This document shows, piece by piece, positions 11,060 through 32,561 of a stretch of DNA of 64,000 nucleotides (the stretch's first letter is position 1; each line of letters opens with the position of its first letter). Under the pieces are notes generated by a model. The model saw nothing but the letters and a program-made list of their open reading frames with translations, did not search any database and was not told the origin of the DNA. The translations under genes and the position numbers were made by a program. This DNA comes from Eubacteriales bacterium (lineage in GTDB: Bacteria; Bacillota; Clostridia; Oscillospirales; CAG-272), in contig JAZTXK010000068.1 in assembly GCA_045636385.1 (NCBI GenBank), forward strand, positions 3,248 to 67,247. Direction: 5' to 3'.

Positions 11060-12109
11060 TTACAGCTCTTCCGCCAAATCGAGTATCAGCCTCTCGGTCT
11101 TCTCCCACCCCAGGCAGGGGTCGGTGATCGACTGACCGCAGACGTAGCTTGCTTCGTCGGTGACCTTCTGTGCTCCGTCGATGAGGTAGCTTTCGATCAT
11201 AAGTCCCTTGACGAGGCGCTTGATATCCGCACTCTTGCGGCAGGAGTGGACGATGTCCTTGGCGATGCGGGGCTGTTCTGCCCACTTTTTGCCCGAGTTT
11301 GCGTGGTTGGTGTCAACGATAACGGCGGGATTTGCGAGATCGGTCTTTGAGTAGGTCTCGCAGAGATCGCGCAGGTCCTCGTAGTGGTAGTTGGGGTAGG
11401 ATTTGCCCGAGCCGTCAACGTAACCGCGGAGGATGGCGTGCGCGAGGGGATTACCGTGGCTCTCGACTTCCCATCCGCGGTAGATGAAGGTGTGGGAGTG
11501 TTGCGCGGCGGTGATAGAGTTCATCATAATTGAAATATCACCGCTTGTGGGGTTCTTCATACCGACGGGAACGTCGATACCGCTTGCCGTGAGGCGGTGC
11601 TGTTGGTTTTCAACAGAACGCGCGCCGACCGCTGTGTAGGCAAGCAGATCGGAAAGGTAACGGTAGTTATCGGGGTAGAGAAGCTCGTCTGCCGAAGCCA
11701 GACCGTAATCGCGCAGAACACGGCTGTGAAGCTCTCTCGTTGCGATGATGCCGCCAAGAACGTCAACCTCCTCGGTGGGGTTGGGCTGATGAAGCATACC
11801 CTTGTAGCCGTCGCCCGTGGTTCTCGGCTTGTTGGTGTAGATTCGGGGGATTATGATTATTTTATCTTCAACCTTTTTCTGAATATCGGCGAGCTTTTCA
11901 ACGTACTGAAGCACAGGCTCGGGGCGGTCGGCGGAGCAGGGACCGATGACGAGGATGAATTTGTCAAGCTCGCCCTTGAAGACCTTTGCGATCTCAACGT
12001 CGCGTGCTTCCTTGATTGCCTGCATTTCCTCGGTGATGGGGAACTGAGCTTTGATATCCATCGGGATGGGAAGCTTGCGCTTGAAATCCATATTTGACAT
12101 ATTACTCAT
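11060..12109 (-). CDS. aroG: 3-deoxy-7-phosphoheptulonate (DAHP) synthase, type I-alpha
   Basis: 349-aa ORF with E. coli AroG/F/H-like blocks: VIGPCS, IIPRIYTNKPRTT, GMKNPTSG, VDTNHANSGK. Confidence 0.9.
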   Translation of the reverse strand: MSNMSNMDFKRKLPIPMDIKAQFPITEEMQAIKEARDVEIAKVFKGELDKFILVIGPCSADRPEPVLQYVEKLADIQKKVEDKIIIIPRIYTNKPRTTGDGYKGMLHQPNPTEEVDVLGGIIATRELHSRVLRDYGLASADELLYPDNYRYLSDLLAYTAVGARSVENQQHRLTASGIDVPVGMKNPTSGDISIMMNSITAAQHSHTFIYRGWEVESHGNPLAHAILRGYVDGSGKSYPNYHYEDLRDLCETYSKTDLANPAVIVDTNHANSGKKWAEQPRIAKDIVHSCRKSADIKRLVKGLMIESYLIDGAQKVTDEASYVCGQSITDPCLGWEKTERLILDLAEEL

Positions 12110-13340
12110 TTGTTATGTTTCCTTTGATATTTGCGCCGAGCTCTTTGAGCTTTTCAAAGAAATCGGGCATACTTTTTCTGACTGCCTCAGCTCCTTGAAT
12201 CTCTCCGCCGAATCGCGCGCAAAGAACCGAAAGGCTCATTGCGATGCGGTGGTCGTTGTGAGAGGAGAGGGGAAGGGTGGGCTCGTGAAGCTCGGTGGGG
12301 AGGATTTTTACAGTTCCGCCGTCAAGTCCGTCAAGGACTTCGATGCGCGCGCCGAACTTTTCAAGCTCCTCCTTCATCGCCGCAATACGGTCGCTTTCCT
12401 TGAAGCGAAGGCGGTCGGTGTGCGTGAACTTACCGCCGAAGATCGCCGCGCAGGTAAAGAGGATCGGCGCAAGATCGGGACAGTCGGAGAGGTTGATGTT
12501 TTGGTTTTTGTTGGCTTTAAGTGCATCAAAATGGCTATTAAAGACCATATCTCCCTGCAAGCTGCTCGGGTTGAGTCCTTCAACCGTAACCTCTCCGCCA
12601 ACGAGATTCAACGCTTCAAAGAACGCGGCGTTCGAGGCGTCGCCCTCGATACGGAGCTCGGCGGGCGTGTATTTTTGATTGCCTTTTATATTAAAAGTTT
12701 TGTTTTCGCGGGTAATTTTTATGCCGAATTTTGCGAGCGTGTCGACGGTCAGATCAACGTAGGATGCGCTTTCGAAATTGCCCTCGACGATGATCTTGCT
12801 GTCGTTTTCGCAGAGGGGAAGGGCAAAGAGCAGACCCGTGATGAACTGACTGCTGACACCGCCGTCGATGCGGTATTCGCCCGATTCGATCGGTTTACCC
12901 GACGCGAGTGTCAAAGTATTGTTGCCCTGACGGCAATATCGCGCCGTGAAGATATCCGAATATACGCCGAGGGGGCGCGAGAGGAGCTTTTCTGTTCCCG
13001 AAAGCTTAAATTCTTCGGGTGAGAGCAGGCATATCGGAATCATAAATCGGAGTGTGCTTCCCGATTCGCGGCAATTAAGAGTATCAAGCGAACGCGGCTT
13101 TCCGCCGATGCCGATGACTTTGACGGTGCCCGTTCCAAGCTTTTCAAATTTCGCTCCGATGGCGGTCAACGCGTCGATCGTCGCGAGAATATCCTCGGAG
13201 AATGCGAGATTGGATATCACACTCTCGCCCTCCGCAAGCGCGGCGCAGATCAGCGCGCGGTGCGAGATGCTTTTCGAGGGCGGTGCAGTGACCTTGCCCG
13301 AAAGACGCGAGGGCGCGATTTTTACGTTATAGCGTTTCAT
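12102..13340 (-). CDS. aroA: 3-phosphoshikimate 1-carboxyvinyltransferase (EPSP synthase)
   Basis: 412-aa ORF. PPSKSISHRALICAALAEG, LRFKESDRI and HNDHRIAMS blocks. Overlaps neighbouring genes at both ends. Confidence 0.95.
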   Translation of the reverse strand: MKRYNVKIAPSRLSGKVTAPPSKSISHRALICAALAEGESVISNLAFSEDILATIDALTAIGAKFEKLGTGTVKVIGIGGKPRSLDTLNCRESGSTLRFMIPICLLSPEEFKLSGTEKLLSRPLGVYSDIFTARYCRQGNNTLTLASGKPIESGEYRIDGGVSSQFITGLLFALPLCENDSKIIVEGNFESASYVDLTVDTLAKFGIKITRENKTFNIKGNQKYTPAELRIEGDASNAAFFEALNLVGGEVTVEGLNPSSLQGDMVFNSHFDALKANKNQNINLSDCPDLAPILFTCAAIFGGKFTHTDRLRFKESDRIAAMKEELEKFGARIEVLDGLDGGTVKILPTELHEPTLPLSSHNDHRIAMSLSVLCARFGGEIQGAEAVRKSMPDFFEKLKELGANIKGNITNE

Positions 13341-13779
13341 TTTTCATTGACTTTTTATGCTCGATCAAAAGATCTATCGCTTCAAGATATCCGTCGGTTC
13401 CGTGACCAGAGATGGTTGCGATGCAAGCCTCGCGGACGTAGCTGATCTGTCTGTATTCCTCGCGCTGCGATACGTCCGAGATATGGACCTCGACCGTCGG
13501 AATGCCGACCGATTTAAGCGCGTCGAGAAGCGCTATCGAGGTGTGTGTATACGCGGCGGGGTTGATGACGATGCCGTCAAACTTTGTATAAGCCTCCTGA
13601 ATGGCGTCAACGAGAACGCCTTCGTGGTTCGACTGGAGCGTTTTCAGCTTGATTCCGCGCTCGCTCGCGTGCTTCTGTATCTTTGCGAGAAGCGACGCGT
13701 AATTTTCCTTGCCGTAGATTTTAGGCTCGCGGATGCCGAGCATATTGATATTGGGGCCGTTGAGAACGAGAATTTTCAT
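13327..13779 (-). CDS. aroQ: type II 3-dehydroquinate dehydratase
   Basis: 150-aa ORF: MKILVLNGPNINMLGIREP..YG, QSNHEG, INPAAYTHTSIAL. Confidence 0.95.
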   Translation of the reverse strand: MKILVLNGPNINMLGIREPKIYGKENYASLLAKIQKHASERGIKLKTLQSNHEGVLVDAIQEAYTKFDGIVINPAAYTHTSIALLDALKSVGIPTVEVHISDVSQREEYRQISYVREACIATISGHGTDGYLEAIDLLIEHKKSMKNETL

Positions 13780-15029
13780 AATGTTATCTCCGAAAAGATC
13801 TTTAAAATTTCCGCCGCCTCTGTTTCGGGGGCGTTTTTGTGTGAAATGCTTACGACTGCGTCAGCCGCGAGAGTGTAGAGAAGATTCCGCGCGAGGTAGA
13901 GCTTTTCGATCGCCGCGCGGTTTGCCGAGAGAGGTCTGTCGGGTGTGACGGGAAGCTCGTCGGTCGGGCAATTGAGATAGAATATTCTGCCGTTTTGGCG
14001 GAGAAGAGCGACGTTGATGCTCCGTGTAACTGCACCGCCGCCCGTGGCGATAACTATACCGCTTTTCTTTGAGATCTCGCGGATAGCCTCGGTTTCGATC
14101 ACACGGAAAGCGTCTTCGCCCGATTCGCGAATGATTTCGGACGGATGCTTGCCGGTTATCTCTCTGATAACTGTGTCGGTGTCAATGAAGTTTCTGCCCG
14201 TGATCTCTGCGATTATCTTGCCTATTGTAGATTTTCCGCAACCGGGCATACCGATGAGAACGATATTTTCCTTTGATTCAAAAATGCTTTTTGCAACTTC
14301 CTCGACGCTATTTTCGTCAAGCTTTTTGCCGAGGAAAATTTCGGATGCTCTTGCCGCCTGAAGAATCAGCATCATAAGTCCGCCGACGGCGGGGATTCCG
14401 CGCTTTTTCGCTTCAAGCACGAGATTTGTCCGCAGGGGATTGTAGATCGCGTCGATCACGCCCGTGAGATTCGGGAAGGAATAAAGGTCGATCGGGCACG
14501 CATCCGTGTTCGGATACATTCCGAGAGGGGTGGTGTTGACGATTATTTCGGCATCCGAATGATGTGTTACTGCTGTTTCGTAGGTCACGGTTTTGTCGCT
14601 TTCCTTGCGGGAAACTACGATTATTTCGCTTGCACCGAGGTCGGAAAGAACAGCCTTTGCGGTCTTCGACGTACCGCCCGTGCCGAGGATGAGAGTCTTT
14701 TTGCCCTCGATCTCAATACCTGCGCGGAGGATCATCTCGCGCATACCGTAAAAATCGGTGTTGTCGCCGATAAGCTTGCCGCCGACTTTTTTGACGGTAT
14801 TTACCGCGCCGATCTTTCTCGCGGCATCGGTTATCTCGTCGAGATAGGGCATCACTTTTTCCTTGTAAGGAATCGTTACGTTGATGCCCTCGAACTCGCG
14901 AGCTTCAAGGAAGGGCGCGATCTCGTCGGGCGTAAGCTCGCGGATCTCGTAGGTGTAATCCGCAAGCGCTTCGTGTATTTCTTTAGAAAAGCTGTGCGAG
15001 AGCTTTTCGCCTATAAGTCCGTATTTCAT
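13776..15029 (-). CDS. aroE-aroK: bifunctional shikimate dehydrogenase / shikimate kinase fusion
   Basis: Track ORF 13776..15446 has an Arg-rich junk N-terminus. The real start is ATG 15029 (MKYGLIGEKLSHSFSKEIH), in ATGA overlap with the aroC stop. AroE fold comes first, then a kinase P-loop LIGMPGCGKSTIGK. Confidence 0.9.
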   Translation of the reverse strand: MKYGLIGEKLSHSFSKEIHEALADYTYEIRELTPDEIAPFLEAREFEGINVTIPYKEKVMPYLDEITDAARKIGAVNTVKKVGGKLIGDNTDFYGMREMILRAGIEIEGKKTLILGTGGTSKTAKAVLSDLGASEIIVVSRKESDKTVTYETAVTHHSDAEIIVNTTPLGMYPNTDACPIDLYSFPNLTGVIDAIYNPLRTNLVLEAKKRGIPAVGGLMMLILQAARASEIFLGKKLDENSVEEVAKSIFESKENIVLIGMPGCGKSTIGKIIAEITGRNFIDTDTVIREITGKHPSEIIRESGEDAFRVIETEAIREISKKSGIVIATGGGAVTRSINVALLRQNGRIFYLNCPTDELPVTPDRPLSANRAAIEKLYLARNLLYTLAADAVVSISHKNAPETEAAEILKIFSEITL

Positions 15030-16111
15030 TTTTGTGTGAGCGCGTCCGAGCCGTAGCGGACGGTGAGCATATCGGCAACGACGAGAGCGGCGACGCTGTC
15101 GAGGACTATTCTCGCGCGCGGAACGATGCAGGGATCGTGTCTGCCTTTGATATTCAGATCGGTTTCCTCGAGAGTTGCCATATTGACGGTCTTCTGAGTC
15201 TGCGCGATCGAGGGCGTGGGCTTTATCGTTGTGCGGAAGACGACGGGCATTCCGTTCGTGATACCGCCCTGAACTCCGCCCGAATTGTTTGTTTCGGTGA
15301 CGATCTTGCCGTCCTTGATGACGAATTCGTCGTTTGCCTTGCTGCCGCGCATAACCGAAATTCTCTCCGCACCGAACGCAACCGCTTTTACTGCGGGAAT
15401 GCCGAAAACTGCGCGTGCGATCTGCGACTCGACTCCGTCGAACCAAGGCTCGCCGAGACCTGTGGGGAGACCGACGATCGCTGTCTCAAGCACGCCTCCG
15501 ACGCTGTCCGAGCGTTCTCTTGCATGCTCGATTACATCCTTCATCCAGTTGATCGAGTGCTGATCGGTCAGACCGTATTCGCTTTCGGCAATCGCAAGGA
15601 GCGATTCGGGAGTGTGCTCCTCGGCTCCGAGAATGATCTGGCCTATCTCCTTTATATACGTGCCGATATAGATGCCTTTTTCGCGCAGGGCGGGGATGAC
15701 TATCGCACCCGCCGCAACGAGTGCCGCAGTCAGTCTGCCCGAAAAATGTCCGCCGCCGCGGTAGTCTTCAAAGCCGTGGTATTTCTCGCGCGCTGTGAAA
15801 TCCGCGTGCGAGGGGCGGGGAAGATCGGGGGTATAGTCGCGGCTTCGCGTGTCGGTGTTGGGAATGAATATGCAAAGCGGCGCGCCCGTGGTGTAGCCGC
15901 CCAAAACTCCGCTTTGAATCACGTATTCGTCGGGCTCGCGGCGGGAGGTCGAGATGCTCTCGGAGGGACGGCGCAGGGTAAGCTGATGCGCGATGAAGTC
16001 CTCGTCGACCTTGATGCCGGGGGCGATACCGTCGATAAGAACGCCGACGCCCGCGCCGTGGCTTTCGCCGAAAAGAGAGATATTTATTGCATTTCCGAAT
16101 GAATTTTTCAT
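15026..16111 (-). CDS. aroC: chorismate synthase
   Basis: 361-aa ORF: FGESHG, GGHFSGRLTA, NNSGGVQGGITNG, GRHDPC. Confidence 0.95.
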   Translation of the reverse strand: MKNSFGNAINISLFGESHGAGVGVLIDGIAPGIKVDEDFIAHQLTLRRPSESISTSRREPDEYVIQSGVLGGYTTGAPLCIFIPNTDTRSRDYTPDLPRPSHADFTAREKYHGFEDYRGGGHFSGRLTAALVAAGAIVIPALREKGIYIGTYIKEIGQIILGAEEHTPESLLAIAESEYGLTDQHSINWMKDVIEHARERSDSVGGVLETAIVGLPTGLGEPWFDGVESQIARAVFGIPAVKAVAFGAERISVMRGSKANDEFVIKDGKIVTETNNSGGVQGGITNGMPVVFRTTIKPTPSIAQTQKTVNMATLEETDLNIKGRHDPCIVPRARIVLDSVAALVVADMLTVRYGSDALTQK

Positions 16112-16114
16112 TTT

Positions 16115-17434
16115 TTAACCTAATCTTTCAATAAGCTCCTCGGGGGTGAGTTTGACGAATTCGAATTCCCCGATATCTTTGAGAATGACCGCGCTGATCT
16201 TGCCGCCCGACGATCCCTTTTTGTCGTGGCTCAAAGCTTCAAGAACGGCATTTTTATCCGAAATATATTTTTCAGCATCGGTGTCAAGACCGATGTTCGA
16301 GAGTGCTTTTTTAAGTCTTTCTTTTACCTTCCCCTCGCACATCGGCGGAATTCCGAGGGCGACGCACTCGCCGTGGAGAAGTGTAAGTCCGAGCGAGCTT
16401 TCGATGGCGTGTCCGAGGGTGTGACCGAAGTTGAGAACCTTGCGAAGTCCACCCTCACGCTCGTCGATCTCAACGACGTCGCGCTTTGCCGTGACCGCGC
16501 GGACGATGATCTCGTCGATCAGATCGGGAGAAGAAAGAACGTCGTTCTTTTCAAATATTTCAAAAAGCTCGGGATCGGACGTCGCGCCCATCTTCAGCGC
16601 CTCGCAAAGACCGTTTGAAATTTGGCGAGAGGAGAGTGTTTTGAGCAAATCGGGGTCAATGAAGACGGCTTTCGGCTGGTGGAAAGCACCGATCATATTC
16701 TTATAGCCGTCGAGATCGACCGCGGTCTTTCCGCCAACCGAGGAATCCACTTGCGCGAGAAGCGTTGTCGGGATATTATAAAAATCAATTCCTCGCATAT
16801 AAGTTGCCGCCGCGAATCCCGCGAGATCGCCGACGACTCCGCCGCCGAGAGCGACAACCGCATCGGTGCGGGCAAATCCCGCCTCGAGCATCGCGCGGAG
16901 GGTGTTTTGCAGAGTGTCGAAATTCTTGTTTTCCTCGCCCGCGGGGATGACGTGCAGTATCGCGCCCTCGCCGAGGGAGGTGAGAAGTCTTTCCGAATAT
17001 TCCTTCGGCACACCGCTGTCGGTGACAACGAGGATCTTTCTGTCCTTTTTAACTATCTTTTCAGCCGCGAGGTCAATTGCGCCTCGGCTGATCTCTATAT
17101 CGTAGCTCGCCTCGCCGAGCCTTACGGGGATCGTTCCCGCACCGACGCGAATGAGGTCTTCCTGAAAACGGCGCGAGACAGCCATATTGTTTTTGAGAAA
17201 TTCGATATAATACGGAAGGAGCTCTCCGTCTTCGATCAGCGCGGAATTTTGATCGATGACCTGCTTTTCGCGCTCGGAGTCGAGTACCTGCAAGCCGTGT
17301 GCGATCTTATATTCCGCAACCTTTCGGACGGCGTTCATTCTTTCCTCGAAAAGACGCGCCATCTCGCGGTCGACTCGGTTTATCGTTTCTCTTGCTTCCT
17401 CGAGCAGAGTTTTCTTTTCCATCGACATTTTCAT
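16115..17434 (-). CDS. aroB: chorismate mutase (AroQ-class) / 3-dehydroquinate synthase fusion
   Basis: 439-aa ORF. The N-terminal 90 aa is a CM helix bundle (LEEARETINRVDREMARLFEERMNAVRKVAEYK..DSEREKQV..VSRRFQ). DHQS follows (GGGVVGDLAGF, PTTLLAQVDSSVGGKT, NFGHTLGHA). SD spacing favours ATG 17428 as the true start. Confidence 0.9.
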   Translation of the reverse strand: MKMSMEKKTLLEEARETINRVDREMARLFEERMNAVRKVAEYKIAHGLQVLDSEREKQVIDQNSALIEDGELLPYYIEFLKNNMAVSRRFQEDLIRVGAGTIPVRLGEASYDIEISRGAIDLAAEKIVKKDRKILVVTDSGVPKEYSERLLTSLGEGAILHVIPAGEENKNFDTLQNTLRAMLEAGFARTDAVVALGGGVVGDLAGFAAATYMRGIDFYNIPTTLLAQVDSSVGGKTAVDLDGYKNMIGAFHQPKAVFIDPDLLKTLSSRQISNGLCEALKMGATSDPELFEIFEKNDVLSSPDLIDEIIVRAVTAKRDVVEIDEREGGLRKVLNFGHTLGHAIESSLGLTLLHGECVALGIPPMCEGKVKERLKKALSNIGLDTDAEKYISDKNAVLEALSHDKKGSSGGKISAVILKDIGEFEFVKLTPEELIERLG

Positions 17435-17721: not shown

Positions 17722-18321
17722 TCAATCTTGCGATTCCCACTCGTAAGGAAGGACGCTGTATTTGTATTCTGTTATATCGGCACTCACTTCCTTCGGAATT
17801 GAAACGAAGATTATCCAGGATTCCATATCGCAGGTGAGGGGAGGTTCAGTGGTCCTGACGATGATGTTACAGAGACCCGATTCGATCGAAATATCTTCAA
17901 TGTCATATCTCTCGCTGCCCGATCCTGCCTCTATAAAGATCATCAAAAGATCGTTTCCCGCGAAAAAAACTTCATCGTAGCCATCAAGCAGTCGGTATTT
18001 ATTTGCCATACGTGCCGCGTTTTCCTTAAATTGCTCGGTTTCTGATCCGGAGTTATTGATTATATTTACACGGAAATAATTATTCTCCAGTTGCATAAGC
18101 TCATCGCGGTCGGCGGCAAGAAGCATACCGTATCGCGCATCATCTTTGCCGGCGGTGAGTCCTTCCTCTTTGATTGCTTTGTCGGAATGTAAGTGATTCA
18201 TTATCGCAACGCTGTAATTTTTACCGTTATATTCGCGCGGCTCGGCTTTGAGAGTCATAGAATGTACGTCTTTGATGTAACCGCGTGTGTAATTCTCGGG
18301 ATAAACGGTACTTTCGGGCAT
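17722..18321 (-). CDS. hypothetical protein; probably the C-terminal part of a frameshifted lipoprotein gene
   Basis: Track ORF 17722..18381. Sensible sequence begins at MPESTVYPENYTRGYIKDV (ATG 18321). Overlaps the upstream ORF by 67 nt in another frame. Confidence 0.5.
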   Translation of the reverse strand: MPESTVYPENYTRGYIKDVHSMTLKAEPREYNGKNYSVAIMNHLHSDKAIKEEGLTAGKDDARYGMLLAADRDELMQLENNYFRVNIINNSGSETEQFKENAARMANKYRLLDGYDEVFFAGNDLLMIFIEAGSGSERYDIEDISIESGLCNIIVRTTEPPLTCDMESWIIFVSIPKEVSADITEYKYSVLPYEWESQD

Positions 18322-18638
18322 TTTTCGATCTCGCCGCTGTAAACGACCTCCACGACAGTTCCTTCTGCCGGTCTTGGGCAAGGTTCACCGTCAGTAAAAT
18401 TCGTCAGATAAATATAAGTCCACTTTTCGGTTTCTCTCGATCCTTCCTCCGGGCGCAGTATTACGTACCCTTGCTCATAAAGCACTTCATGTGCATAAAA
18501 CGAATGCAGGACAGGTTTTTCGGGAGCTTTTTCGGTCGTTTCGGGAGAATATGTGGTTTCGGTAGTGCCATCAAAGCAGGAAACAAATGAAAACAGCATA
18601 AACGTTGCCAATATGAATGCGAGTAGCTTTTTCATCAT
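18255..18638 (-). CDS. lipoprotein fragment (N-terminal part of the frameshifted gene)
   Basis: Signal peptide MMKKLLAFILATFMLFSFVSC. Reading frame is lost at the A5 run 18325..18321. One extra A would join ..VVYSGEIEK to MPESTVYPENY. Confidence 0.5.
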   Translation of the reverse strand: MMKKLLAFILATFMLFSFVSCFDGTTETTYSPETTEKAPEKPVLHSFYAHEVLYEQGYVILRPEEGSRETEKWTYIYLTNFTDGEPCPRPAEGTVVEVVYSGEIEKCPKVPFIPRITHAVTSKTYIL

Positions 18639-18881
18639 TTCATTTTTCTCCTTTTGCTTTTCACTATATAAGATAGATTTTTTCGTCCGAAAGTTTCATT
18701 TTTCGGAAAAATTAATCAATTATTTTTCAACTTTATTATATCATAATAATATATAAGTGTCAACAAATTTTTTTGGACGTGGGTATCCCATTCGGGTGTC
18801 GGAAAAGTGTGACATTTTTAAGGATATTTAGACAATTTTTAACCATTTACGCCCTAAATATAAAATTTTGTTGAAAATAGG

Positions 18882-18910
18882 TTGACCGCGTGCGGGCTTT
18901 GTGGTATACT
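18882..18910 (+). promoter_or_regulatory. sigma-A-type promoter
   Basis: TTGACC (18882-18887), 17 nt, TGgTATACT (18902-18910). Confidence 0.6.
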
Positions 18911-18918
18911 ATCTCGGT

Positions 18919-18954
18919 TCGCAAATACAATCGCAAATACAATCGCAATTACAG
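18919..18954 (+). repeat. 12-bp tandem repeat x3 in the 5' UTR
   Basis: TCGCAAATACAA TCGCAAATACAA TCGCAATTACAG. The last unit runs into the AGGAGA Shine-Dalgarno site. Confidence 0.8.
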
Positions 18955-18961
18955 GAGAATC

Positions 18962-20893
18962 ATGAAACTTTCAGTCAAGATCGCCGCGCTTTTGATCGCG
19001 ATCACTTTGATCGTTCCGATCTTTTTTGCTTGCAAAAACATCGGCGGCGATAAAAATAATACGGTAAATAACGATAAGGATGAAGTCACGACGGCTGCCG
19101 AGATTGCCGAGCAGTATCTGCCCGAATCCGAGAAGGGTGTCGTTACCGCGCCCGAGGCGGGAGCGAAGGTGTATAATATCATTTTCGCGCTTGCGACGGT
19201 GCCGCCCGTCCTTGCCGCGCTCGACGCAATTGAGAGCGGTCACGAGACCTACGCCTTGATCGAGAGGGGCAAGACCTACAACGGTATCTCCGAGGTAGCC
19301 GCGATCGAGAACGCGGGCTTCGATCCCTCGGATAATCTCAGCAACGGATTTACCTCGGAAGAGTTCGATCTTATGGTCGAGAAGGTAAAAGAGCTCCGCG
19401 AGGGGGAGGAAAACAGCTTTTTCTATTTCTACTCGCAGGACGCAACCGCGCTCAAGTGTGCGGCTATCGCGGCGAATGCGAATATTCCGCTTGAGGACTT
19501 CCACGTTTATATGTGCGAGGACGGAAGCGGTTCGTACAAGACCTTCCGCGAGACTTTCGTGGACGGCAAGTATGCAAACGATGAAAAGGACGAGCCATAC
19601 GAGGCGTTTATGAACATCCTCGGCGGCGCGGGAATGAATTTCACGACAGTTATGTCGCGCAGAGATAACAAAAACTCGGACGAGGCGCTGAAATATAATA
19701 TCGCGTCCGCGTTCGCGCTTTCCCTTCTTCCCAACTTCACCTATTGGCTCCAGAGCGCGGATCAGATCGAGAGCATTCTTCTCGACACCCGCGGCAGTGC
19801 GCTTCCCGCGCTTTTCGGTCTCGAAGGACACGAGGGCGACGGAGTTTATTCCGCGAACGTGAGATATCAGACGATTTCTGATAAGATCTCGACTCTTTCC
19901 GATAGCCAGAAGGCTGATTACCTCACCCTGATGTACGGCGATTACTACGAAAACACCTACGCCGCGCTTACGAGGGGTGAGCGTGCGGGCGAGCCCGCGC
20001 CCGAGGAAAAGCTCGTTTTCATCGGCGCGAGATACGGATATTACCCGAAATTCGCCTCGGAAGAGAAGTACGGCATCGGCGGCTTGAGAGACGGTGACGT
20101 ATTCCCCGCGAGCTACGCGGAGCTTGATGAAAAGTACAAAAACGTACTTCTTTTCGCCACCGAATCCGATTACGATGCCTTCCTCTCGGTAATCAACGAC
20201 AGCGCAAACTATCCCGAAAATGCGCCCGCTGACGTAGTCGATGAGATCCGCCGCGAGTGCTTCAATCTCTATATCGACTATATTTTCACGATGAAATTCA
20301 CCTATTCGCTCTACGGCGGCGAGTACGATATCATCCTCAAGGGACATCCCCGCGAGGTGCTCGGAGCTTACGGCGAATGGGGCAAGCGGTATAACGTCGT
20401 TCGCACCGAGGTTGAGGGCGACGGACTCAAGGAAACGAAATTCTGCTTCGACAAGCTTCTTGATAATGCGCTCATCGCGTTCCACAACGAGGATTCGGTC
20501 GGTAAGCTCATAGGAATGGTGCCCTTCGGCACTGCGGCTGAAAATCTCGCTTATCTCGGCGTTGATATAACCGTTTGCGGTCTGCCCTCGTCGACTTACA
20601 GCGGACTTGACGTGGGAGTGGACGTGCTGTTCATTATGGCGGAGACCGACGAGTCGATCTGCGGCGACGATTCGCAGGTCAAGGATCGCTTCAACGCGGG
20701 CAATCTGACCTACGGCGATGGCGTTCCCACCGTATTTTATAACAACGGAAGCGTCTGCAAGTACACCGCAGAGATACTCGCCTCCGCGGGAGATAATTCA
20801 TCCTCTGCGGACTTCGAGCGCCTTTTCTCCGCGTGGCTCGCGGCAAACCGCCCCGGCTCGGACGATATCGACGCGCAGGGATTTGGAAAATAA
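18962..20893 (+). CDS. lipoprotein with GT80 (PmST1-type) sialyltransferase-like motifs
   Basis: ATG 18962 follows AGGAGA; the track ORF starts at 18890. Signal MKLSVKIAALLIAITLIVPIFFAC. Motifs in GT80 order: YMCEDGSGSY (19517..), ADYLTLMYGD, ILKGHPRE (20339..), PFGTAAENL, GLPSSTYSGL (20588..). Confidence 0.6.
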   Translation: MKLSVKIAALLIAITLIVPIFFACKNIGGDKNNTVNNDKDEVTTAAEIAEQYLPESEKGVVTAPEAGAKVYNIIFALATVPPVLAALDAIESGHETYALIERGKTYNGISEVAAIENAGFDPSDNLSNGFTSEEFDLMVEKVKELREGEENSFFYFYSQDATALKCAAIAANANIPLEDFHVYMCEDGSGSYKTFRETFVDGKYANDEKDEPYEAFMNILGGAGMNFTTVMSRRDNKNSDEALKYNIASAFALSLLPNFTYWLQSADQIESILLDTRGSALPALFGLEGHEGDGVYSANVRYQTISDKISTLSDSQKADYLTLMYGDYYENTYAALTRGERAGEPAPEEKLVFIGARYGYYPKFASEEKYGIGGLRDGDVFPASYAELDEKYKNVLLFATESDYDAFLSVINDSANYPENAPADVVDEIRRECFNLYIDYIFTMKFTYSLYGGEYDIILKGHPREVLGAYGEWGKRYNVVRTEVEGDGLKETKFCFDKLLDNALIAFHNEDSVGKLIGMVPFGTAAENLAYLGVDITVCGLPSSTYSGLDVGVDVLFIMAETDESICGDDSQVKDRFNAGNLTYGDGVPTVFYNNGSVCKYTAEILASAGDNSSSADFERLFSAWLAANRPGSDDIDAQGFGK

Positions 20894-20899
20894 TATAAA

Positions 20900-20943
20900 A
20901 GACCGATATGCCTGATCAAACGGTAATATCGGTCTGTTTTTTG
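20900..20943 (+). terminator. rho-independent terminator
   Basis: AGACCGATAT..ATATCGGTCT followed by GTTTTTTG. Confidence 0.7.
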
Positions 20944-21017
20944 TTTGGATATTATGTATAAAATCAAACTTCGAATTTGTACTAAATGATGAAAATGCAT
21001 AAATTATGTTGTTTTCA

Positions 21018-21046
21018 TTGACAAAAAATTGTTAATATGATATAAT
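21018..21046 (+). promoter_or_regulatory. sigma-A-type promoter at the edge of the AT-rich island
   Basis: TTGACA (21018-21023), 17 nt, TGaTATAAT (21038-21046). About 150-nt leader before ATG 21200. Confidence 0.55.
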
Positions 21047-21262
21047 GGTTACAGCAAGATATATTTCTACAAGGATGATAAGCCGATGTTCCGTTTTATA
21101 TAGCGGAATGCCCGGAAAATACTTAACCTATCCGGCAGATTCCGCATAGGGTGCACTATGCTAAAAACTAAAAATAATATTACAGAGAGGTAAATCATTA
21201 TGAAAATGACTCGTCGAATTCTTGCATTTACGATGGCTGTGATTATCTGAGTTTCCTTCTGT

Positions 21263-21721
21263 ATGACGCATATTGCAGCGACTCCGCACGAATCATACGA
21301 ATGGATGGGTGATCCCATCGAAAGGCCTTTTATTGAAGGTCAGCCTTCAAGAATGAAGGTATATTGCACAAATTACGGCTGGAACGAAGAGGTCGATACA
21401 GATTTTTACGCGTTTACCATTGCCGATAGCGTATATTACGCCAATGATAGGCAGTATTATGCTCAGGCATCGGTCAGCGTAGGACTCTACTATGACGACG
21501 AGCAGTATTGGATAAACGAATCGGTTTCAGCGGATTGCGATGCTACAGTCCGGGGACTGACTGCAGAAGCCTATATCGCCGGCAATGATCTTATTGATAT
21601 GGATCACGGTATTGAGCATTTTTCCACTAATCATAGGATTGATATTTGTATTAATGACGGCGGAGTGATGGTTCCCATAGATAATTACGGACCTTCTATA
21701 GGAGTTACGACATCTTACTAA
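21263..21721 (+). CDS. hypothetical protein; probably a secreted protein interrupted by an in-frame TGA
   Basis: 152-aa ORF. In frame upstream, ATG 21200 (AGAGAGG SD) encodes MKMTRRILAFTMAVII, then TGA (21248..21250), then VSFCMTHIAATP. That reads as a signal peptide broken by one stop codon. Confidence 0.5.
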   Translation: MTHIAATPHESYEWMGDPIERPFIEGQPSRMKVYCTNYGWNEEVDTDFYAFTIADSVYYANDRQYYAQASVSVGLYYDDEQYWINESVSADCDATVRGLTAEAYIAGNDLIDMDHGIEHFSTNHRIDICINDGGVMVPIDNYGPSIGVTTSY

Positions 21722-21791
21722 ACATTTTCGTAACCACGCGGTTTTCCGCGTGGTTACGATTTAGAAAAATGTTTTATTTATTATGGAGTTA

Positions 21792-23183
21792 ATGATGAGT
21801 AAAATAACTTTTATTCTTACATTATTACTGCTCGTATCCGTTCTTTCCTCTTGTTCTTCGATATATGTAAGCTCGCCTGATATAACGCGGGATTATACTA
21901 TGGAGGTTGATCCTAATGAAGAATATTTTACTTCGGGAGCAGTGGTAAACAGAAATGATGGCAAAGGTAGGATCTATAACGATTATTGGATATATCTTGA
22001 AACTCAAAGTTACCAGGAATATATTAAGACAAATTCCGACGGAAGTGAAAAGTGGGCGAATCGAAGCGTAAAACGATGGGTGAAGCTGAATACCAAAACA
22101 GGCGAAGTATCAAGCCTTTGCCTTATTCCCTCGTGTACTCACAGTCCGGGCTCGGACTGCCCAATGATAGTTACCGGCGGTACCGCACTGATACAAGGGT
22201 TGATAGATGATTGGTTCGTATTTTCATATTATCATAATCCCGGTATGAACGCGGATTCCTTGGGGTATATTCCGGAGTCATATATTTATAACCTGCAAAC
22301 AGGTGAGCTTATTAAGCTTTTGGAATACGATTTGTCGGGAACTGTTATATCAAAAGCATCCACATGGTGCTTTTTTGAGGATGAAATGTATTTTGTTAAG
22401 GATGTGTTTGATTATTCGGATTCAGGATATATTCCGGGAAAAGATATGCCGGATTATTTTGTCCCCGAAACCAGATCGTATTTGTGTAGATTTGATATTG
22501 ATATCAAAGAAATATCCGAAGTAATGGAAATTCCGACTGAGTATGAGATTTCTGCAATAACAAACAGACGTTTTTTCTTTATTGATGATAAAAAAGAAAT
22601 ATACTCTTGCGATAGAAATGTCAAAGCATTGACAAAAGAAAAGGTTTTGGACTTTTCCCCACAGGAGTTTTGCGGAATATATGCGTATAATTTTTCCAAC
22701 ATAGAAGGCGGAGAGCTTCTCGTATATAATATCAGAACCGATACCAAATCCGTTATTGATACCGAATATACCTACCGTCAGGCAATAGCCACGAACGACG
22801 GAATAATAATGACCACCTTCAGCGATTCGAACGAGGGGTATTCCGAGATCACCGAACGCAGGAGTGAGTTTAAGAACGACGCCGAAATGCTCAAGGCGAG
22901 GGATAAGTACAGATATGAGTCTACTGCCTTGGTATATATGCTGAGCTTCGACGGCAGTAGCCGCAGTCTTATATTTGAAAAGGACAGGATTATAATCACG
23001 GCTTATCTGAAATCCGATAAATACCTGTGTGGTATGCAGAACGGTATCGATCCCGATAACGACTATGAGTGGGTCGCTCTTCCGAACAGCGGCAGAGTTC
23101 TGATCGATATCGAAACCGGAGAAATAACCCCCGTGCCGTACCTCGAGCTCGTTTATTCCGAGGGTTACAGAGCGGTTGAATGA
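21792..23183 (+). CDS. lipoprotein, function unknown (AT-rich gene)
   Basis: Track ORF 21783..23183. Signal MMSKITFILTLLLLVSVLSSC. Repetitive Tyr/Asp-rich body suggests a beta-rich fold. No catalytic motif recognised. Confidence 0.75.
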   Translation: MMSKITFILTLLLLVSVLSSCSSIYVSSPDITRDYTMEVDPNEEYFTSGAVVNRNDGKGRIYNDYWIYLETQSYQEYIKTNSDGSEKWANRSVKRWVKLNTKTGEVSSLCLIPSCTHSPGSDCPMIVTGGTALIQGLIDDWFVFSYYHNPGMNADSLGYIPESYIYNLQTGELIKLLEYDLSGTVISKASTWCFFEDEMYFVKDVFDYSDSGYIPGKDMPDYFVPETRSYLCRFDIDIKEISEVMEIPTEYEISAITNRRFFFIDDKKEIYSCDRNVKALTKEKVLDFSPQEFCGIYAYNFSNIEGGELLVYNIRTDTKSVIDTEYTYRQAIATNDGIIMTTFSDSNEGYSEITERRSEFKNDAEMLKARDKYRYESTALVYMLSFDGSSRSLIFEKDRIIITAYLKSDKYLCGMQNGIDPDNDYEWVALPNSGRVLIDIETGEITPVPYLELVYSEGYRAVE

Positions 23184-23190
23184 AAATAAT

Positions 23191-23219
23191 AAAGACCGAT
23201 TCATTGAGAACCGGTCTTT
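23191..23219. terminator. bidirectional terminator between convergent genes
   Basis: AAAGACCG-ATTCATTGAGAAC-CGGTCTTT. Confidence 0.55.
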
Positions 23220-23222
23220 ACT

Positions 23223-26640: not shown

Positions 26641-27765
26641 ATGAAAATCGTTTTGCAGAATCTGACTAAGGTTTTCCCGAGTCGAAACAAGAAATCAAAC
26701 GAAGAGGTCGTTGCGGTAAGCGATCTCACCTTCACAATTCCCGACGGTAAGCTCGTCGGTCTTCTCGGCCCCTCCGGTTGCGGAAAGAGTACCACTCTTT
26801 ATATGATCAGCGGTCTTCAGAAGCCCACCGGCGGACAGATCTTCTTCGGTGAAGACGACGTTACCACCCTCTCCCCCGAGAACAGAGGCGTCGGTCTGGT
26901 ATTTCAGAACTACGCGCTCTATCCTCATATGACCGTCAAGCAGAATATCCTCTTCCCGCTCCAGAATCTCAAGGGCGCGGACAAGCTTGACAAAAACACC
27001 ATGCTCGAGCGCGCTCTCGAGGCGGCAAGACTTGTGCAGATCGACAATCTTATGGACCGCAAGCCGAGTGAGCTTTCGGGCGGTCAGCAGCAGAGAGTTG
27101 CTATTGCGCGCGCACTCGTAAAGATGCCCCGCGTGCTCCTTCTCGACGAGCCGCTTTCGAACCTCGATGCGCGTCTCCGTCTGCAGACGAGAGAGGAGAT
27201 CCGCCGTATTCAGAACGAGACCGGCATCACCACAATCTTCGTAACCCACGACCAGGAGGAGGCAATGTCCATCTCCGACGTCATCGTCGTTATGAAGCTT
27301 GGCGTAGTTCAGCAGATCGGCAAGCCGCAGACGGTTTACGATAACCCCGTAAATCTCTTTGTCGCAAAGTTCCTCGGAACTCCCCCCATTAACGTTTTCA
27401 AGGCAAACGTCAAGGGCGGCAAGCTTTACATCAACGGCGAGGCTGTACTCGATGTTCAGGGTGTAGCTGACCGCGAGGTATTTGCCGCGATCCGTCCCGA
27501 GGGCTTCGTCCCCGCGGAAAACGGAGCGATGACCTGCGCGCTTTCCTCTATCGAGGTTATGGGCCGCGACGTAAGCATCGTATCGAAGAACGAGGCTATG
27601 CTCACTCCCACCATCCGCGCGATCGTTGACGCGGATTATAAGATCTCCGCGAGCGCGCAGACCGTCAAGTTCGACCTCAAGCCCCACAAGGTATTCATTT
27701 TCGATTCCGAGACCGAGGAAAGAATCTACTTTGGTGACCAAACTGCTCCCGAGACAGGTATCTGA
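26641..27765 (+). CDS. ABC transporter ATP-binding protein (MalK/UgpC/MsmX type)
   Basis: Walker A GPSGCGKST, signature LSGGQQQRVAIARAL, Walker B LLLDEPLS, plus a C-terminal TOBE-like regulatory domain. Confidence 0.95.
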   Translation: MKIVLQNLTKVFPSRNKKSNEEVVAVSDLTFTIPDGKLVGLLGPSGCGKSTTLYMISGLQKPTGGQIFFGEDDVTTLSPENRGVGLVFQNYALYPHMTVKQNILFPLQNLKGADKLDKNTMLERALEAARLVQIDNLMDRKPSELSGGQQQRVAIARALVKMPRVLLLDEPLSNLDARLRLQTREEIRRIQNETGITTIFVTHDQEEAMSISDVIVVMKLGVVQQIGKPQTVYDNPVNLFVAKFLGTPPINVFKANVKGGKLYINGEAVLDVQGVADREVFAAIRPEGFVPAENGAMTCALSSIEVMGRDVSIVSKNEAMLTPTIRAIVDADYKISASAQTVKFDLKPHKVFIFDSETEERIYFGDQTAPETGI

Positions 27766-27776
27766 GGTAGACAGAT

Positions 27777-28718: not shown

Positions 28719-28730
28719 TGGAGGTGCGAT

Positions 28731-29627: not shown

Positions 29628-29680
29628 TAGCAGAATTTCTGCTTAAAAAATAAATTTTACAACCGAAAGGAAATAAGAAA

Positions 29681-31144: not shown

Positions 31145-31157
31145 TAGTATATAATTA

Positions 31158-32540: not shown

Positions 32541-32561
32541 AAAACATATAAAGGAGTTATC

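Follow-up and report, generated by a model that had tools for sequence, protein, structure and literature searches.

The gene described here lies on the forward strand of the window (the whole stretch of 64,000 nucleotides that was analysed), which comes from an uncultured Clostridia bacterium of the livestock gut, a host in keeping with the Gram-positive anaerobe supposed in an earlier note on this DNA. It encodes a protein of 643 aa, read from an ATG at 18962 through a TAA ending at 20893 (Table 1). A longer reading from a GTG at 18890 is unlikely, and the ATG was preferred because the promoter falls inside the extension, AGGAGA precedes the ATG and the homologues begin with MK... The promoter has 10 of 12 consensus matches with a TG ahead of the -10, and both the -35 and the TGgTATACT are unchanged in the relatives L001, L002, L003, and L007, the proteins of which are 65–91% identical. 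Around the ribosome-binding site, AGGAGAATCATG is common to the window, L001, L002, and L003, and a shifted variant, GGAGAAATCATG, appears in L007. The 12-nt leader repeat TCGCAAATACAA varies from strain to strain (about three copies in the window and L002, two in L001, one in L003, and none in L007) and is probably dispensable. Downstream, the terminator hairpin has a folding energy of -16.9 kcal/mol (z -3.74, equally good folds in 0 of 200 shuffles), with an analogous hairpin 3' of the gene in L001. The gene is monocistronic, and contigs from bovine-gut metatranscriptomes (90–97% identity) map within the gene body only.

Table 1. Features of the GT80-like lipoprotein gene and its product, in window coordinates.
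Feature	Position	Strand	Basis or remark
Own promoter, TTGACC, 17-nt spacer, TG-extended -10 TATACT	18882..18910	+	Consensus scan
12-nt direct repeat TCGCAAATACAA, 2.9 copies, 5' leader	18919..18953	+	TRF score 63, 95% matches
Shine-Dalgarno AGGAGA, 3 nt upstream of ATG	18953..18958	+	Direct reading of sequence
Coding sequence, GT80-like 643-aa lipoprotein	18962..20893	+	Stop codon included
Lipoprotein signal peptide, lipobox F-F-A-C, Cys24	18962..19033	+	PROSITE PS51257-type rule; alignment
Disordered, weakly conserved tether, aa 25 to about 67	19034..19162	+	AF2 pLDDT; alignment
N-terminal Rossmann-like (acceptor-side) GT-B domain, aa about 68–345	19163..19996	+	AF2 secondary structure
D/E-D/E-G motif YMCEDGSGSY, aa 183–192	19508..19537	+	D187 aligned to catalytic base Asp141 of PmST1
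ADYLTLMYGD helix, aa 318–327	19913..19942	+	Equivalent to PmST1 AFYLTLVGFND
C-terminal Rossmann-like (predicted nucleotide-sugar-binding) domain, aa about 346–643	19997..20890	+	AF2 model; GT80 C-domain alignment
Family-specific insertion 1, aa about 358–433, after first C-domain strand	20033..20260	+	hhalign; alignment
HP motif ILKGHPRE, aa 458–465	20333..20356	+	K460/H462/R464 aligned to PmST1 K309/H311/R313
Family-specific insertion 2, aa about 470–515, beta-hairpin and helix after HP motif	20369..20506	+	hhalign gap vs GT80
PFGTAAENL, aa 521–529	20522..20548	+	E527 aligned to PmST1 Glu338; motif aligned to ISFEVLMM
GLPSSTYSGL, aa 540–549	20579..20608	+	S543/S544 aligned to PmST1 Ser355/Ser356; motif aligned to GGVASSLYFS
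Intrinsic terminator, hairpin then U-run	20900..20946	+	RNA fold

The protein is a lipoprotein, as the earlier note had supposed. Its N-terminus, MKLSVKIAALLIAITLIVPIFFAC (MKLSVK...IFFAC), follows at Cys24 the PROSITE-PS51257-type rule, i.e., a basic n-region, a hydrophobic h-region, and a lipobox [LIVMF..]-[..]-[AGS]-C at positions 15–35. Cys24 is invariant across a 43-sequence alignment, and the rule holds in 100 of 120 full-length family members, with a visible [AS]-C lipobox in all of the failures that were inspected. The region that follows is disordered, with pLDDT below 50 at aa 21–57 in the AlphaFold (AF2) model and a tether that varies in length and sequence across the alignment.

The earlier note had recognised in this protein five motifs which it compared with those of the Pasteurella multocida sialyltransferase PmST1. 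All five are present in the order given there, and the PmST1 motifs quoted alongside them (LYDDGSMEY, AFYLTLVGFND, YFKGHPRG, ISFEVLMM, and GGVASSLYFSL) are correct in the real PmST1 sequence. In profile alignments the five motifs of our protein bring its residues position by position onto the catalytic Asp, the His of the HP motif, the Glu of the CMP ribose, and the Ser-Ser of the phosphate, D187, H462, E527, and S543/S544 standing opposite PmST1 D141, H311, E338, and S355/S356 in the merged alignments. The D/E-D/E-G motif is defined in PMC4202792 together with the roles of Asp141 and His311 in PmST1, and Glu338, Ser355, and Ser356 are listed there as important for catalysis. The first motif aligns to LYDDGSMEY of PmST1 and LYDDGSSEY of the P. 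damselae enzyme, E186, D187, and G188 facing D140-D141-G142; ADYLTLMYGD is in register with PmST1 239–245 and with LSDSQ...FLDIV of P. damselae ST, and the HP motif aligns to FKGHPRG. In PmST1 structures Glu338 contacts the ribose of CMP.

Conservation was counted in 120 full-length members, 50–91% identical. E186, D187, G188, K460, G461, H462, P463, E465, E527, N528, S543, T545, and Y546 are invariant in all 120, R464 in 115, and position 544 is Ser in 118; in the alignment of 43 sequences there is no variation at Y320, L321, L323, M324, Y325, or G326. The correspondences to Glu338 and Ser355/Ser356 rest on alignment, and so does the predicted clustering of the catalytic residues in the cleft. 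Spacing between motifs differs from PmST1 by +33 aa from EDG to ADYLTLM, +72 from there to HP, +38 from HP to the Glu, and -1 from the Glu to the Ser-Ser, in agreement with the insertions of roughly 100 and 40 aa estimated previously. PmST1 Trp270, an acceptor-site residue, is not conserved in the merged alignment, where G359 takes its place, and the position of T268 holds an invariant R357.

The AF2 model (pLDDT 85.3, pTM 0.81) shows two Rossmann-like domains separated by a cleft, the arrangement of a GT-B protein, and its Foldseek matches are GT80 enzymes first and other GT-B proteins afterward. The best four PDB matches are all GT80 sialyltransferases, with E values of about 1e-9 to 1e-10 (8.7e-11 and a target TM of 0.64 for 2ZWI, 8e-10 for 4R83), and the runners-up are far behind, namely the GT38 structure 5WCN in fifth place (3e-5) and UDP-GlcNAc 2-epimerases (1e-4). 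The N-terminal domain aligns to its GT80 counterpart, including ATVPP/ASLPS and R102/R, and has a helical region that is expanded relative to GT80. Insertion 1 contains the invariant residues GIGG, Y385, Y392-K393, and D403-Y404 and is unaligned by hhalign to either GT80 or the bridging family described below; in insertion 2 the model places strands at 478–485 and 488–495 and a helix at 497–510.

At the sequence level the link to GT80 appears solely via structure and an intermediate family. Searches of Pfam, NCBIfam, and (by phmmer) PDB sequences with the protein gave no match at E ≤ 10, and at the same limit the family profile found none in the PDB either. The profile search against Pfam PM0188 suggested by the earlier note was negative for the protein, PF11477 giving no match at E ≤ 10 either to it or to the 43 family members that were searched, and a direct hhalign against one GT80 sequence returned the EDG motif only (E 0.0015, probability 17%). 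The family profile finds, however, a set of lipoproteins of about 450 aa, here the bridging family A2 (P0184, P0191, P0197, P0211, and others), the C-termini of which match Pfam PM0188/GT80 (two exceed the gathering score, with 34 and 41 vs. 25 bits) and also match PmST1 directly (E 1.6e-4). Our family and the bridging family align by hhalign with probability 100 and E 4.3e-42 over 407 columns, and the bridging profile matches solved GT80 enzymes at E 9e-19 to 5e-10 across both domains; among PDB chains these are its only matches, with none to GT38. Profile–profile comparison through the intermediate family gives E 1e-38 to 1e-41.

The resemblance to GT80 is far beyond chance, and the Foldseek match, the hhalign chain, and the motifs in register identify the protein as a true, remote homologue of the PmST1 type. 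It represents a new branch, in Firmicutes, of the GT80-type sialyltransferase superfamily, well supported in fold and catalytic apparatus. In line with the earlier note, canonical GT80 occurs essentially in Gammaproteobacteria only (27 clusters, all PF11477-positive). Other assignments were considered. PF07388, the GT38 polysialyltransferase family, is not matched by the window protein and only faintly, below threshold, by 13 of 43 relatives (best E 0.0012), and 5WCN is a poorer structural match than the GT80 enzymes. A GH33 sialidase or trans-sialidase was rejected as well, with no BNR or sialidase Pfam match and a predicted GT-B fold instead of a six-bladed beta-propeller. An ABC solute-binding lipoprotein was likewise rejected (Pfam gave no SBP match, and the top 50 structural matches contain none), and the nearest ABC operon, at 26641–31144, has its own SBP.

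The lipid anchor had been taken to set this protein apart from GT80. It does not, because canonical Vibrionaceae GT80 enzymes are themselves lipoproteins and the anchor is therefore shared, not new. GT80 enzymes of Photobacterium, Aeromonas, Shewanella, and Enterovibrio carry lipoboxes (LSAC, LTAC, IVGC, LNGC, and others), those of Pasteurella have Sec signal peptides, and an extracytoplasmic location is common to the family. The difference is one of cell plan, the enzyme of a monoderm being turned to the outside instead of to a periplasm.

At least 258 homologues were found, each annotated as 'hypothetical' and lacking any Pfam domain. They are spread over about 70 species-level genomes from the gut, belonging to Clostridia, Christensenellales, Erysipelotrichaceae, and Acholeplasmatales, and every one of these genomes is an animal-gut MAG. 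In the window's own clade the gene adjoins a shikimate operon and is without an informative partner. At seven divergent loci (L040, L044, L045, L048, L051, L059, and L064) it abuts genes for the assembly of envelope glycans, among them Wzx flippase, EpsG or Wzy_C, GT4, GT2, DUF4422, Glf, O-acyltransferase, and PMT_2, and a distant SLH-anchored relative sits within a cluster for teichoic acid or a cell-wall polymer. The polysaccharide clusters holding divergent members look GDP-mannose/galactofuranose-based rather than sialic-acid-based. Genes for CMP-sugar synthesis (NeuA, NeuB, or KdsB type) were found neither in the window nor near any relative examined, and the same applies to nan genes of sialic-acid catabolism and to sialic-acid transporter genes in the window and the examined neighborhoods. 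The Wzx/Wzy context of the divergent relatives suggests that the acceptor is a surface glycan of the cell itself. This acceptor had not been considered in the earlier note.

The explanation that we favor, with moderate confidence as a whole, is that of a lipid-anchored, outward-facing GT-B enzyme transferring a CMP-activated acidic sugar onto the surface glycan of its own cell. The enzyme would sit on the outside of the cytoplasmic membrane in a monoderm gut Clostridia bacterium. Beyond a disordered tether of some 40 aa, the mature protein is a two-domain GT-B glycosyltransferase of the bacterial HP-motif sialyltransferase superfamily, closest to CAZy GT80. D187 would act as general base and H462, within KGHPR, would handle the leaving phosphate; E527 is the equivalent of the CMP-binding Glu338, and S543/S544 would bind the phosphate. 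The C-domain would hold a CMP-activated acidic sugar of the sialic, nonulosonic, or ulosonic acid type for inverting transfer to a glycan hydroxyl, with the N-domain and the two family-specific insertions holding this acceptor glycan. The likeliest acceptor is a surface polysaccharide exported by the bacterium itself or a glycopolymer of its cell wall. Since the whole GT80 catalytic set is kept, inverting transfer from a CMP-sugar is the likeliest mechanism. The ORF with its transcription signals, the lipobox, the fold, the chain of homology, the matching and invariant residues and, in a subset of relatives, the glycan-cluster context are observed, and from there we infer the binding of a nucleotide sugar, the identity of the sugar, its acceptor, and a route for CMP-sugar or catalytic CMP to the outside; no supply of CMP-sugar is known on the outside of monoderm cells.

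This question of the donor brings in the reading of the earlier note, that of an extracellular sialidase or trans-sialidase, which we consider unlikely though still credible. Such an enzyme would act on host sialoglycans, with tightly bound or trace CMP as cofactor. Reverse transfer would generate CMP-Neu5Ac on the enzyme, to be followed by hydrolysis or by transfer to a second glycan, possibly the cell's own capsule. In its favor, conservation is complete at the CMP-binding and catalytic residues, the domain lies outside the cytoplasm, where sialoglycans are available and CMP-sugars are not, the carriers are exclusively from animal guts, and the surface-polysaccharide clusters at seven loci would fit self-decoration. 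According to a passage of PMC8827155, GT80 enzymes do show such activities and catalytic CMP suffices. They are, however, side activities in the known GT80 enzymes, the Trp270 of the acceptor/sialoside site is not conserved, the genes for sialic-acid catabolism and transport are lacking in the window and examined neighborhoods, and the gut-only distribution may come from MAG sampling bias. Nor does this activity provide the escape from the need for a nucleotide that had been proposed, the GT80 version being a CMP-dependent reverse transfer in that same passage, which summarises Mehr & Withers 2016. With a predicted GT-B fold and no BNR, any trans-sialidase activity would have to follow the CMP-dependent GT80 mechanism.

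Another way around the donor, which appears quite unlikely, would be a GT80 scaffold re-purposed for different chemistry, a new kind of extracytoplasmic decorating or ligating enzyme for surface polymers, with another phosphate-linked group available there, for instance a polyprenyl-phosphate sugar or a polyprenyl-pyrophosphate-linked glycan as donor. Wzx, Wzy_C/EpsG, and PMT_2 (GT-C), its neighbors at the divergent loci, handle lipid-linked glycans outside the membrane; the SLH-anchored relative in a teichoic-acid-type cluster and the lack of CMP-sugar genes nearby agree with this, and the two large insertions with invariant residues, R357 for T268, and G359 for W270 would suggest altered substrates. 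On the other hand, the invariant E527, KGHPR, and SS motifs would most simply reflect retained CMP binding, and we know of no GT-B enzyme that uses polyprenyl-phosphate donors. Very improbable is a non-catalytic surface lipoprotein that merely keeps the GT-B shape, as a binder of glycans or nucleotides or a receptor like a solute-binding protein: many Gram-positive lipoproteins are two-lobed binding proteins and neither an operon partner nor a donor is in sight, but the catalytic Asp and His are kept without exception in the 120 members, solute-binding proteins are absent from the Pfam matches and from the top 50 structural ones, and the gene is not beside a transporter in most lineages. That the motif resemblance is a coincidence in an unrelated protein, as the lack of direct Pfam, NCBIfam, or PDB sequence matches might suggest, has a negligible probability and is refuted by Foldseek (E 1e-10, specifically to GT80 structures), the transitive profile chain (E 4e-42 and 9e-19), and the register of all five motifs.

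A broader proposal, speculative and in our view rather doubtful, is that gut Firmicutes have an unrecognised class of outward-facing GT80/GT38-like enzymes (lipid-, SLH-, or repeat-anchored) working in transfer without a cytoplasmic supply of nucleotide sugar. By one route, if true, trans-sialidases with CMP as cofactor would take sialic acid from host mucins to cap the capsule or cell-wall polymer of their own cell, a glycosyltransferase-fold analogue of the trypanosome trans-sialidase; by the other, the donors would be linked to lipid phosphate. Either of them would give monoderm bacteria a new way of decorating glycans outside the cytoplasm.

GT80 sialyltransferases are the workhorses of chemoenzymatic sialoside synthesis. 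The present data extend their superfamily from 27 gammaproteobacterial clusters to a family of at least 258 sequences that no curated model recognises, which probably merits its own Pfam or CAZy entry and may be a source of new specificities. They also raise the question of how a donor reaches extracytoplasmic enzymes of the sialyltransferase type, for the lipoprotein GT80 enzymes of marine Vibrionaceae too, and it is starker in a monoderm because there is no periplasm. If the cell's own surface glycan does receive a sialic-acid-like sugar, this would bear on host mimicry and immune interaction in abundant uncultured gut commensals of livestock and humans.

Among known systems, PmST1 (PM0188, the multifunctional P. 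multocida alpha2,3/2,6-sialyltransferase; GT80, PF11477; 2EX0, 2IHZ, and 2C83) shares with our protein the GT-B fold, the order of the motifs, and an N-terminal export signal, although this is a Sec signal peptide in PmST1 and a lipobox here. The protein comes from a Firmicute and not from Pasteurellaceae, is about 230 aa longer, with the three insertions and the replaced Trp270 described above, and has only some 11–16% identity to GT80 enzymes in structural and profile alignments. The best structural matches are the Photobacterium enzymes (P. damselae ST0160, 4R83/4R9V, and the P. phosphoreum alpha2,3-ST, 2ZWI), and all motifs, ASLPS/ATVPP and LSDSQ/LSDSQ among them, are in register. Our protein shares its plan of lipobox Cys, spacer, and GT-B module with the P. 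damselae enzyme and close relatives of the latter in Vibrionaceae, Aeromonas, and Shewanella; however, the P. damselae type has an Ig-like domain (PF22352) in the place of the disordered tether, the marine enzymes lack the C-domain insertions, and the diderm anchor faces the periplasm or an outer-membrane leaflet whereas the monoderm protein faces the medium.

The nearest sequence relatives outside the family are the Firmicute proteins of the bridging family A2 and their SLH-, BACON-, or repeat-anchored relatives, which have the same motifs. They are lipoproteins or signal-anchored, like ours, but without the two C-domain insertions; they have no NCBIfam name, and some of them, unlike our protein, reach the PF11477 gathering score. 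GT38 polysialyltransferases (PF07388; 5WCN) belong to the same HP-motif GT-B superfamily. Finally, Neisseria Lst, the surface-exposed alpha2,3-sialyltransferase of LOS (GT52), provides a functional precedent for an HP-motif enzyme outside the cytoplasm, although it belongs to another CAZy family, is an outer-membrane protein of a diderm pathogen, and is likened to our protein by the shared motifs alone; a passage of PMC4324315, citing Shell et al. 2002, states that it can use CMP-Neu5Ac scavenged from the host.

A confident AlphaFold2 model of the window protein, built from the alignment (pLDDT 85.3, pTM 0.81), was compared with the PDB by Foldseek, and the best four matches were all GT80 sialyltransferases: two to 2ZWI of P. 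phosphoreum (target TM 0.64-0.65, with E 8.7e-11 and 4.7e-9) and two to 4R83 of P. damselae (E 8e-10 and 2e-9). The GT38 structure 5WCN came next (3e-5), followed by generic GT-B proteins (UDP-GlcNAc 2-epimerases, UGTs) at 1e-4 or worse. Readings of the protein as a solute-binding protein or as a GH33 enzyme were both ruled out by this fold. Direct sequence searches were negative. At E<=10 the window protein had no match in NCBIfam or in Pfam, including PF11477, the PM0188 profile that the earlier note had named as a check. At the same cut-off a phmmer search of every PDB sequence found nothing, nor did a search of the PDB sequences with a 43-sequence family profile, and PF11477 did not match any of the 43 aligned members scanned one by one. 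PF07388 (GT38) gave sub-threshold matches in 13 of the 43 (best E 0.0012). When the family profile was aligned by hhalign with a single solved GT80 sequence, the EDG motif alone was recovered (E 0.0015, probability 17%), and an intermediate family was therefore needed.

An exhaustive profile search over 1.8 billion representatives gave 122 matches. Beyond the family proper there is a bridging family, without a name in NCBIfam, of proteins of ~450 aa, many of them lipoproteins themselves, which match the N-terminal half of the family and whose C-terminal halves match PF11477 or, in some relatives, PF07388 instead. Two of them exceed the PF11477 gathering score of 25 bits (P0211, 34.1 bits; P0214, 41 bits), and P0211 aligns directly with the Pasteurella enzyme PmST1 (E 1.6e-4) across FKGHPRG...ISFEVLMM...GGVASSLYFS. 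A bridging profile of 20 sequences matched the window's family (hhalign probability 100, E 4.3e-42, 407 columns) and, over both domains, solved GT80 enzymes (E 9e-19 for 4R9V/4R83 and 9e-17 for P. dagmatis 4V39), with further solved members at 2e-16 (2Z4T), 6e-14 (PmST1), and 5e-10 (2ZWI). The GT80 kinship proposed in the earlier note is thus upheld twice, by the four leading structural matches and by the profile chain through the bridging family. Judged by sequence models the window protein fails GT80 membership, yet as far as can be inferred it works like a GT80 enzyme. P0214 (loci L078 and L079), from a Clostridiales MAG, is a secreted protein of 1017 aa in which two GT80-like modules follow one another, both having a complete set of DG(T/S)..Y, KPHP, PMEV, and SSLY motifs.

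The five motifs listed in the earlier note are all present in the window protein (aa 183-192, 318-327, 458-465, 521-529, and 540-549). Their register was established by adding actual GT80 sequences to the bridging alignment, which was then compared with the family profile; in these merged alignments the window protein aligned with the P. damselae sialyltransferase at E 1e-41 and with full-length PmST1 at E 9.6e-39, native PmST1 numbering having been verified on the retrieved 412-aa sequence. E186-D187-G188-S189 falls on PmST1 D140-D141-G142-S143, ADYLTLM (318-324) on AFYLTLV (239-245), K460-G-H462-P-R464 on K309-G-H311-P-R313, E527 on E338, and S543-S544 on S355-S356, with two more motifs in register (ATVPP with ASLP(S/A), and LSDSQ with LSDSQ). 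The D/E-D/E-G and HP motifs are the hallmark of bacterial GT38/52/80 sialyltransferases, and Asp141, His311, Glu338, Ser355, and Ser356 are important for PmST1 catalysis (PMC4202792). Among 120 full-length members, which share 50-91% identity, E186, D187, G188, K460, G461, H462, P463, E465, E527, N528, S543, T545, and Y546 are invariant, and position 544 is Ser in 118. It is well supported by these alignments that the catalytic and CMP-binding apparatus is intact and strongly constrained. The window protein has insertions of +33, +72, and +38 aa relative to PmST1, the last two (~aa 358-433 and 470-515) containing family-invariant residues. PmST1 Trp270 is replaced by G359 and T268 by an invariant R357, so the acceptor side has changed.

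The N-terminus satisfies a PROSITE-type lipobox rule at Cys24, which is invariant in the 43-sequence alignment, in agreement with the first description of the protein as a lipoprotein. The strict rule is passed by 100 of the 120 full-length members, and in all the failures inspected an [AS]-C lipobox can be made out behind an over-extended gene start or an extra Cys. Residues 21-57 vary across the alignment and lack order in the model, as a tether should. In a divergent member, P0127 (loci L080 and L081), the tether that separates lipobox and catalytic domain includes a collagen-like repeat (PF01391). There are at least 258 relatives in a large protein collection, all labelled as hypothetical protein and none with a Pfam domain. 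Among species-representative genomes the ~70 carriers are all uncultured animal-gut MAGs (Clostridia/Eubacteriales, Oscillospiraceae, Christensenellales, Erysipelotrichaceae, Acholeplasmatales/Anaeroplasmataceae, 'Bacilli', and one Gastranaerophilaceae). The nearest relative, at 91%, was recovered from the colon of dairy cattle (Clostridia bacterium RGIG402), and metagenomes of bovine gut, pig gut, and manure were the only ones with near-identical k-mers, so that a Gram-positive anaerobe is a fair description of the host.

The features around the gene are collected in the table. A mechanical ORF list had put the start at GTG 18890, upstream of the ATG, and this extension holds the gene's own promoter. 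Neither the -35 nor the extended -10 nor the start codon varies across relatives with only 65-91% protein identity; AGGAGAATCATG is common to four of the five sequences compared, the relative L007 having a shifted variant. The 12-nt tandem repeat TCGCAAATACAA of the 5' leader varies from 0 to ~3 copies among close relatives. The non-coding stretch 5' of the promoter (e.g., TTTAGACAATTTTTAACCA...CGCCCTAA) shows striking conservation, many of its columns being unchanged among relatives of only 65-69% protein identity, and is a possible operator or UP element. Since a hairpin and U-run lie close behind the stop codon, the gene is monocistronic. Contigs from two bovine-gut metatranscriptomes, with 90-97% identity, map to 18953-19050 and 20111-20749, within the gene body only and without matches in the flanks, and are weak evidence that orthologues are transcribed. 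Long opposite-strand mirror ORFs face nearly every gene of the window, by which naive ORF calling would be misled. The one facing this gene was taken as such a shadow ORF, because conservation and invariant motifs belong to the + strand product.

Features of the window at and around the gene for the GT80-like lipoprotein
Feature	Position in window	Strand	Details
Shikimate-pathway operon	11060-17434	-	DAHP synthase, EPSP synthase, chorismate synthase, two fusions
Divergently transcribed small lipoprotein gene	17722-18638	-	frameshift-split
Conserved non-coding stretch	18800-18881		5' of promoter
Promoter	18882-18910		TTGACC-17-TATACT, TG extension
Tandem repeat	18919-18953		2.9 copies
AGGAGA	18953-18958		upstream of ATG
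Gene under study	18962-20893	+	ATG to end of TAA, 643 aa (ORF translation)
Antisense ORF	18971-20485	-	504 aa
Hairpin and U-run	20900-20946		dG -16.9 kcal/mol, z -3.74
Segment of ~2.3 kb	~20950-23220		GC 0.445-0.452
Perfect sigma-70 consensus promoter	21018-21046		start of segment
ORF in segment	21263-21721		152 aa
ORF in segment	21783-23183		466 aa, lipobox ...LSSC, no Pfam match
Sugar-type ABC transporter operon	within 26641-34604	+	ATPase, two permeases, 487-aa solute-binding protein
Genes after ABC operon	within 26641-34604	+	460-aa staphylococcal-nuclease-domain protein, then 680-aa ORF without Pfam match
Type I phosphodiesterase/nucleotide pyrophosphatase	40604-41905

In the window's clade the gene is flanked on one side by the divergently transcribed small lipoprotein gene and the shikimate operon, and on the other by membrane-protein, FAD-oxidoreductase, RDD, and sugar-ABC genes. 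The shikimate, small lipoprotein, FAD oxidoreductase, RDD, and ABC genes are neighbours only there, and no operon partner was conserved beyond close synteny across 63 loci. One fusion of the shikimate operon (chorismate mutase-dehydroquinate synthase) was assigned by Pfam, the other (shikimate dehydrogenase-shikimate kinase) was read from the translation only. The small lipoprotein gene is intact in L001 (310 aa), residues 1-104 corresponding to ORF 18255-18638 and 106-304 to ORF 17722-18381, which overlaps it in a different frame; the split in the window reflects either a pseudogene or a fault in the assembly. The ~2.3-kb segment, lower in GC, is missing from L001, the closest relative, in which the next conserved gene comes immediately after.

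Seven divergent loci (L040, L044, L045, L048, L051, L059, and L064), labelled Bacilli, Mollicutes or similar, have the gene next to envelope-glycan assembly genes: Wzx flippase (PF01943), EpsG or Wzy_C, GT4, GT2, a GT32-like transferase, DUF4422, UDP-galactopyranose mutase, GDP-mannose enzymes, O-acyltransferase, and PMT_2 (GT-C). P0231 (locus L077, 10001-11782), an SLH-anchored distant relative, combines three SLH domains with one catalytic domain of GT38/GT80-like type and sits in the middle of a cluster of teichoic-acid or secondary-cell-wall-polymer type (three TagF-like genes, TagGH-type ABC exporter, TagD-like cytidylyltransferase, Wzy_C, and rmlABCD). Other members lie among unrelated genes.

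There is good support for placing the window protein in the HP-motif sialyltransferase superfamily, with GT80 nearest, as a GT-B enzyme that is anchored by lipid and faces outward. In the most likely mechanism, to which we give about an even chance, a CMP-activated acidic sugar would be passed with inversion to a cell-surface glycan, and gene context in a minority of relatives suggests as acceptor the polysaccharide that the cell itself exports. A sialidase or trans-sialidase acting on host glycans with CMP as cofactor, as gut carriers might suggest, seems unlikely; the earlier note had favoured this activity as a way round the nucleotide need, but the GT80 versions do require CMP, of which catalytic amounts suffice (Mehr & Withers 2016, as summarised in PMC8827155). 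Re-purposing of the scaffold for lipid-phosphate donors is doubtful, since the conservation of E527 and of the KGHPR and SS motifs is accounted for most easily if CMP binding was kept. In its favour, CMP-sugar, sialic- or nonulosonic-acid genes were absent from the 64-kb window, and CMP-sugar or sialic-acid genes from the surroundings of the relatives examined. Neisseria Lst is a precedent for a surface-exposed sialyltransferase fed by scavenged CMP-Neu5Ac (PMC4324315). A non-catalytic binding protein is very improbable, the invariant catalytic Asp and His speaking against it. Chance resemblance to GT80 is refuted by fold and profiles alike.

A survey seeded with one solved sequence showed canonical GT80 to be small: its 27 clusters all match PF11477 and all come from Gammaproteobacteria save one 1.6-kb MAG fragment, much as had been supposed. 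No characterised Gram-positive or gut GT80-like lipoprotein was found in the literature searched. Since PMC2996176 has no citable statement on the localisation of the marine enzymes, export was judged from N-terminal sequences. Photobacterium, Aeromonas, Shewanella, and Enterovibrio GT80 have lipoboxes (LSAC, LTAC, IVGC, LNGC, ITGC, and others; 13 pass the strict rule and 3 more were seen by eye). In the canonical set P0242-P0261, Pasteurellaceae proteins have Sec signal peptides and most from Vibrionaceae, Aeromonas, and Shewanella an N-terminal lipobox Cys. GT80 enzymes thus have the lipid anchor, first taken as a departure from them, in common with the window protein, and the classical family too raises the question of how a sialyltransferase outside the cytoplasm comes by its CMP-sialic acid. 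What distinguishes the window protein from canonical GT80 is its new phylum, its sequence distance, its insertions, and its monoderm setting.
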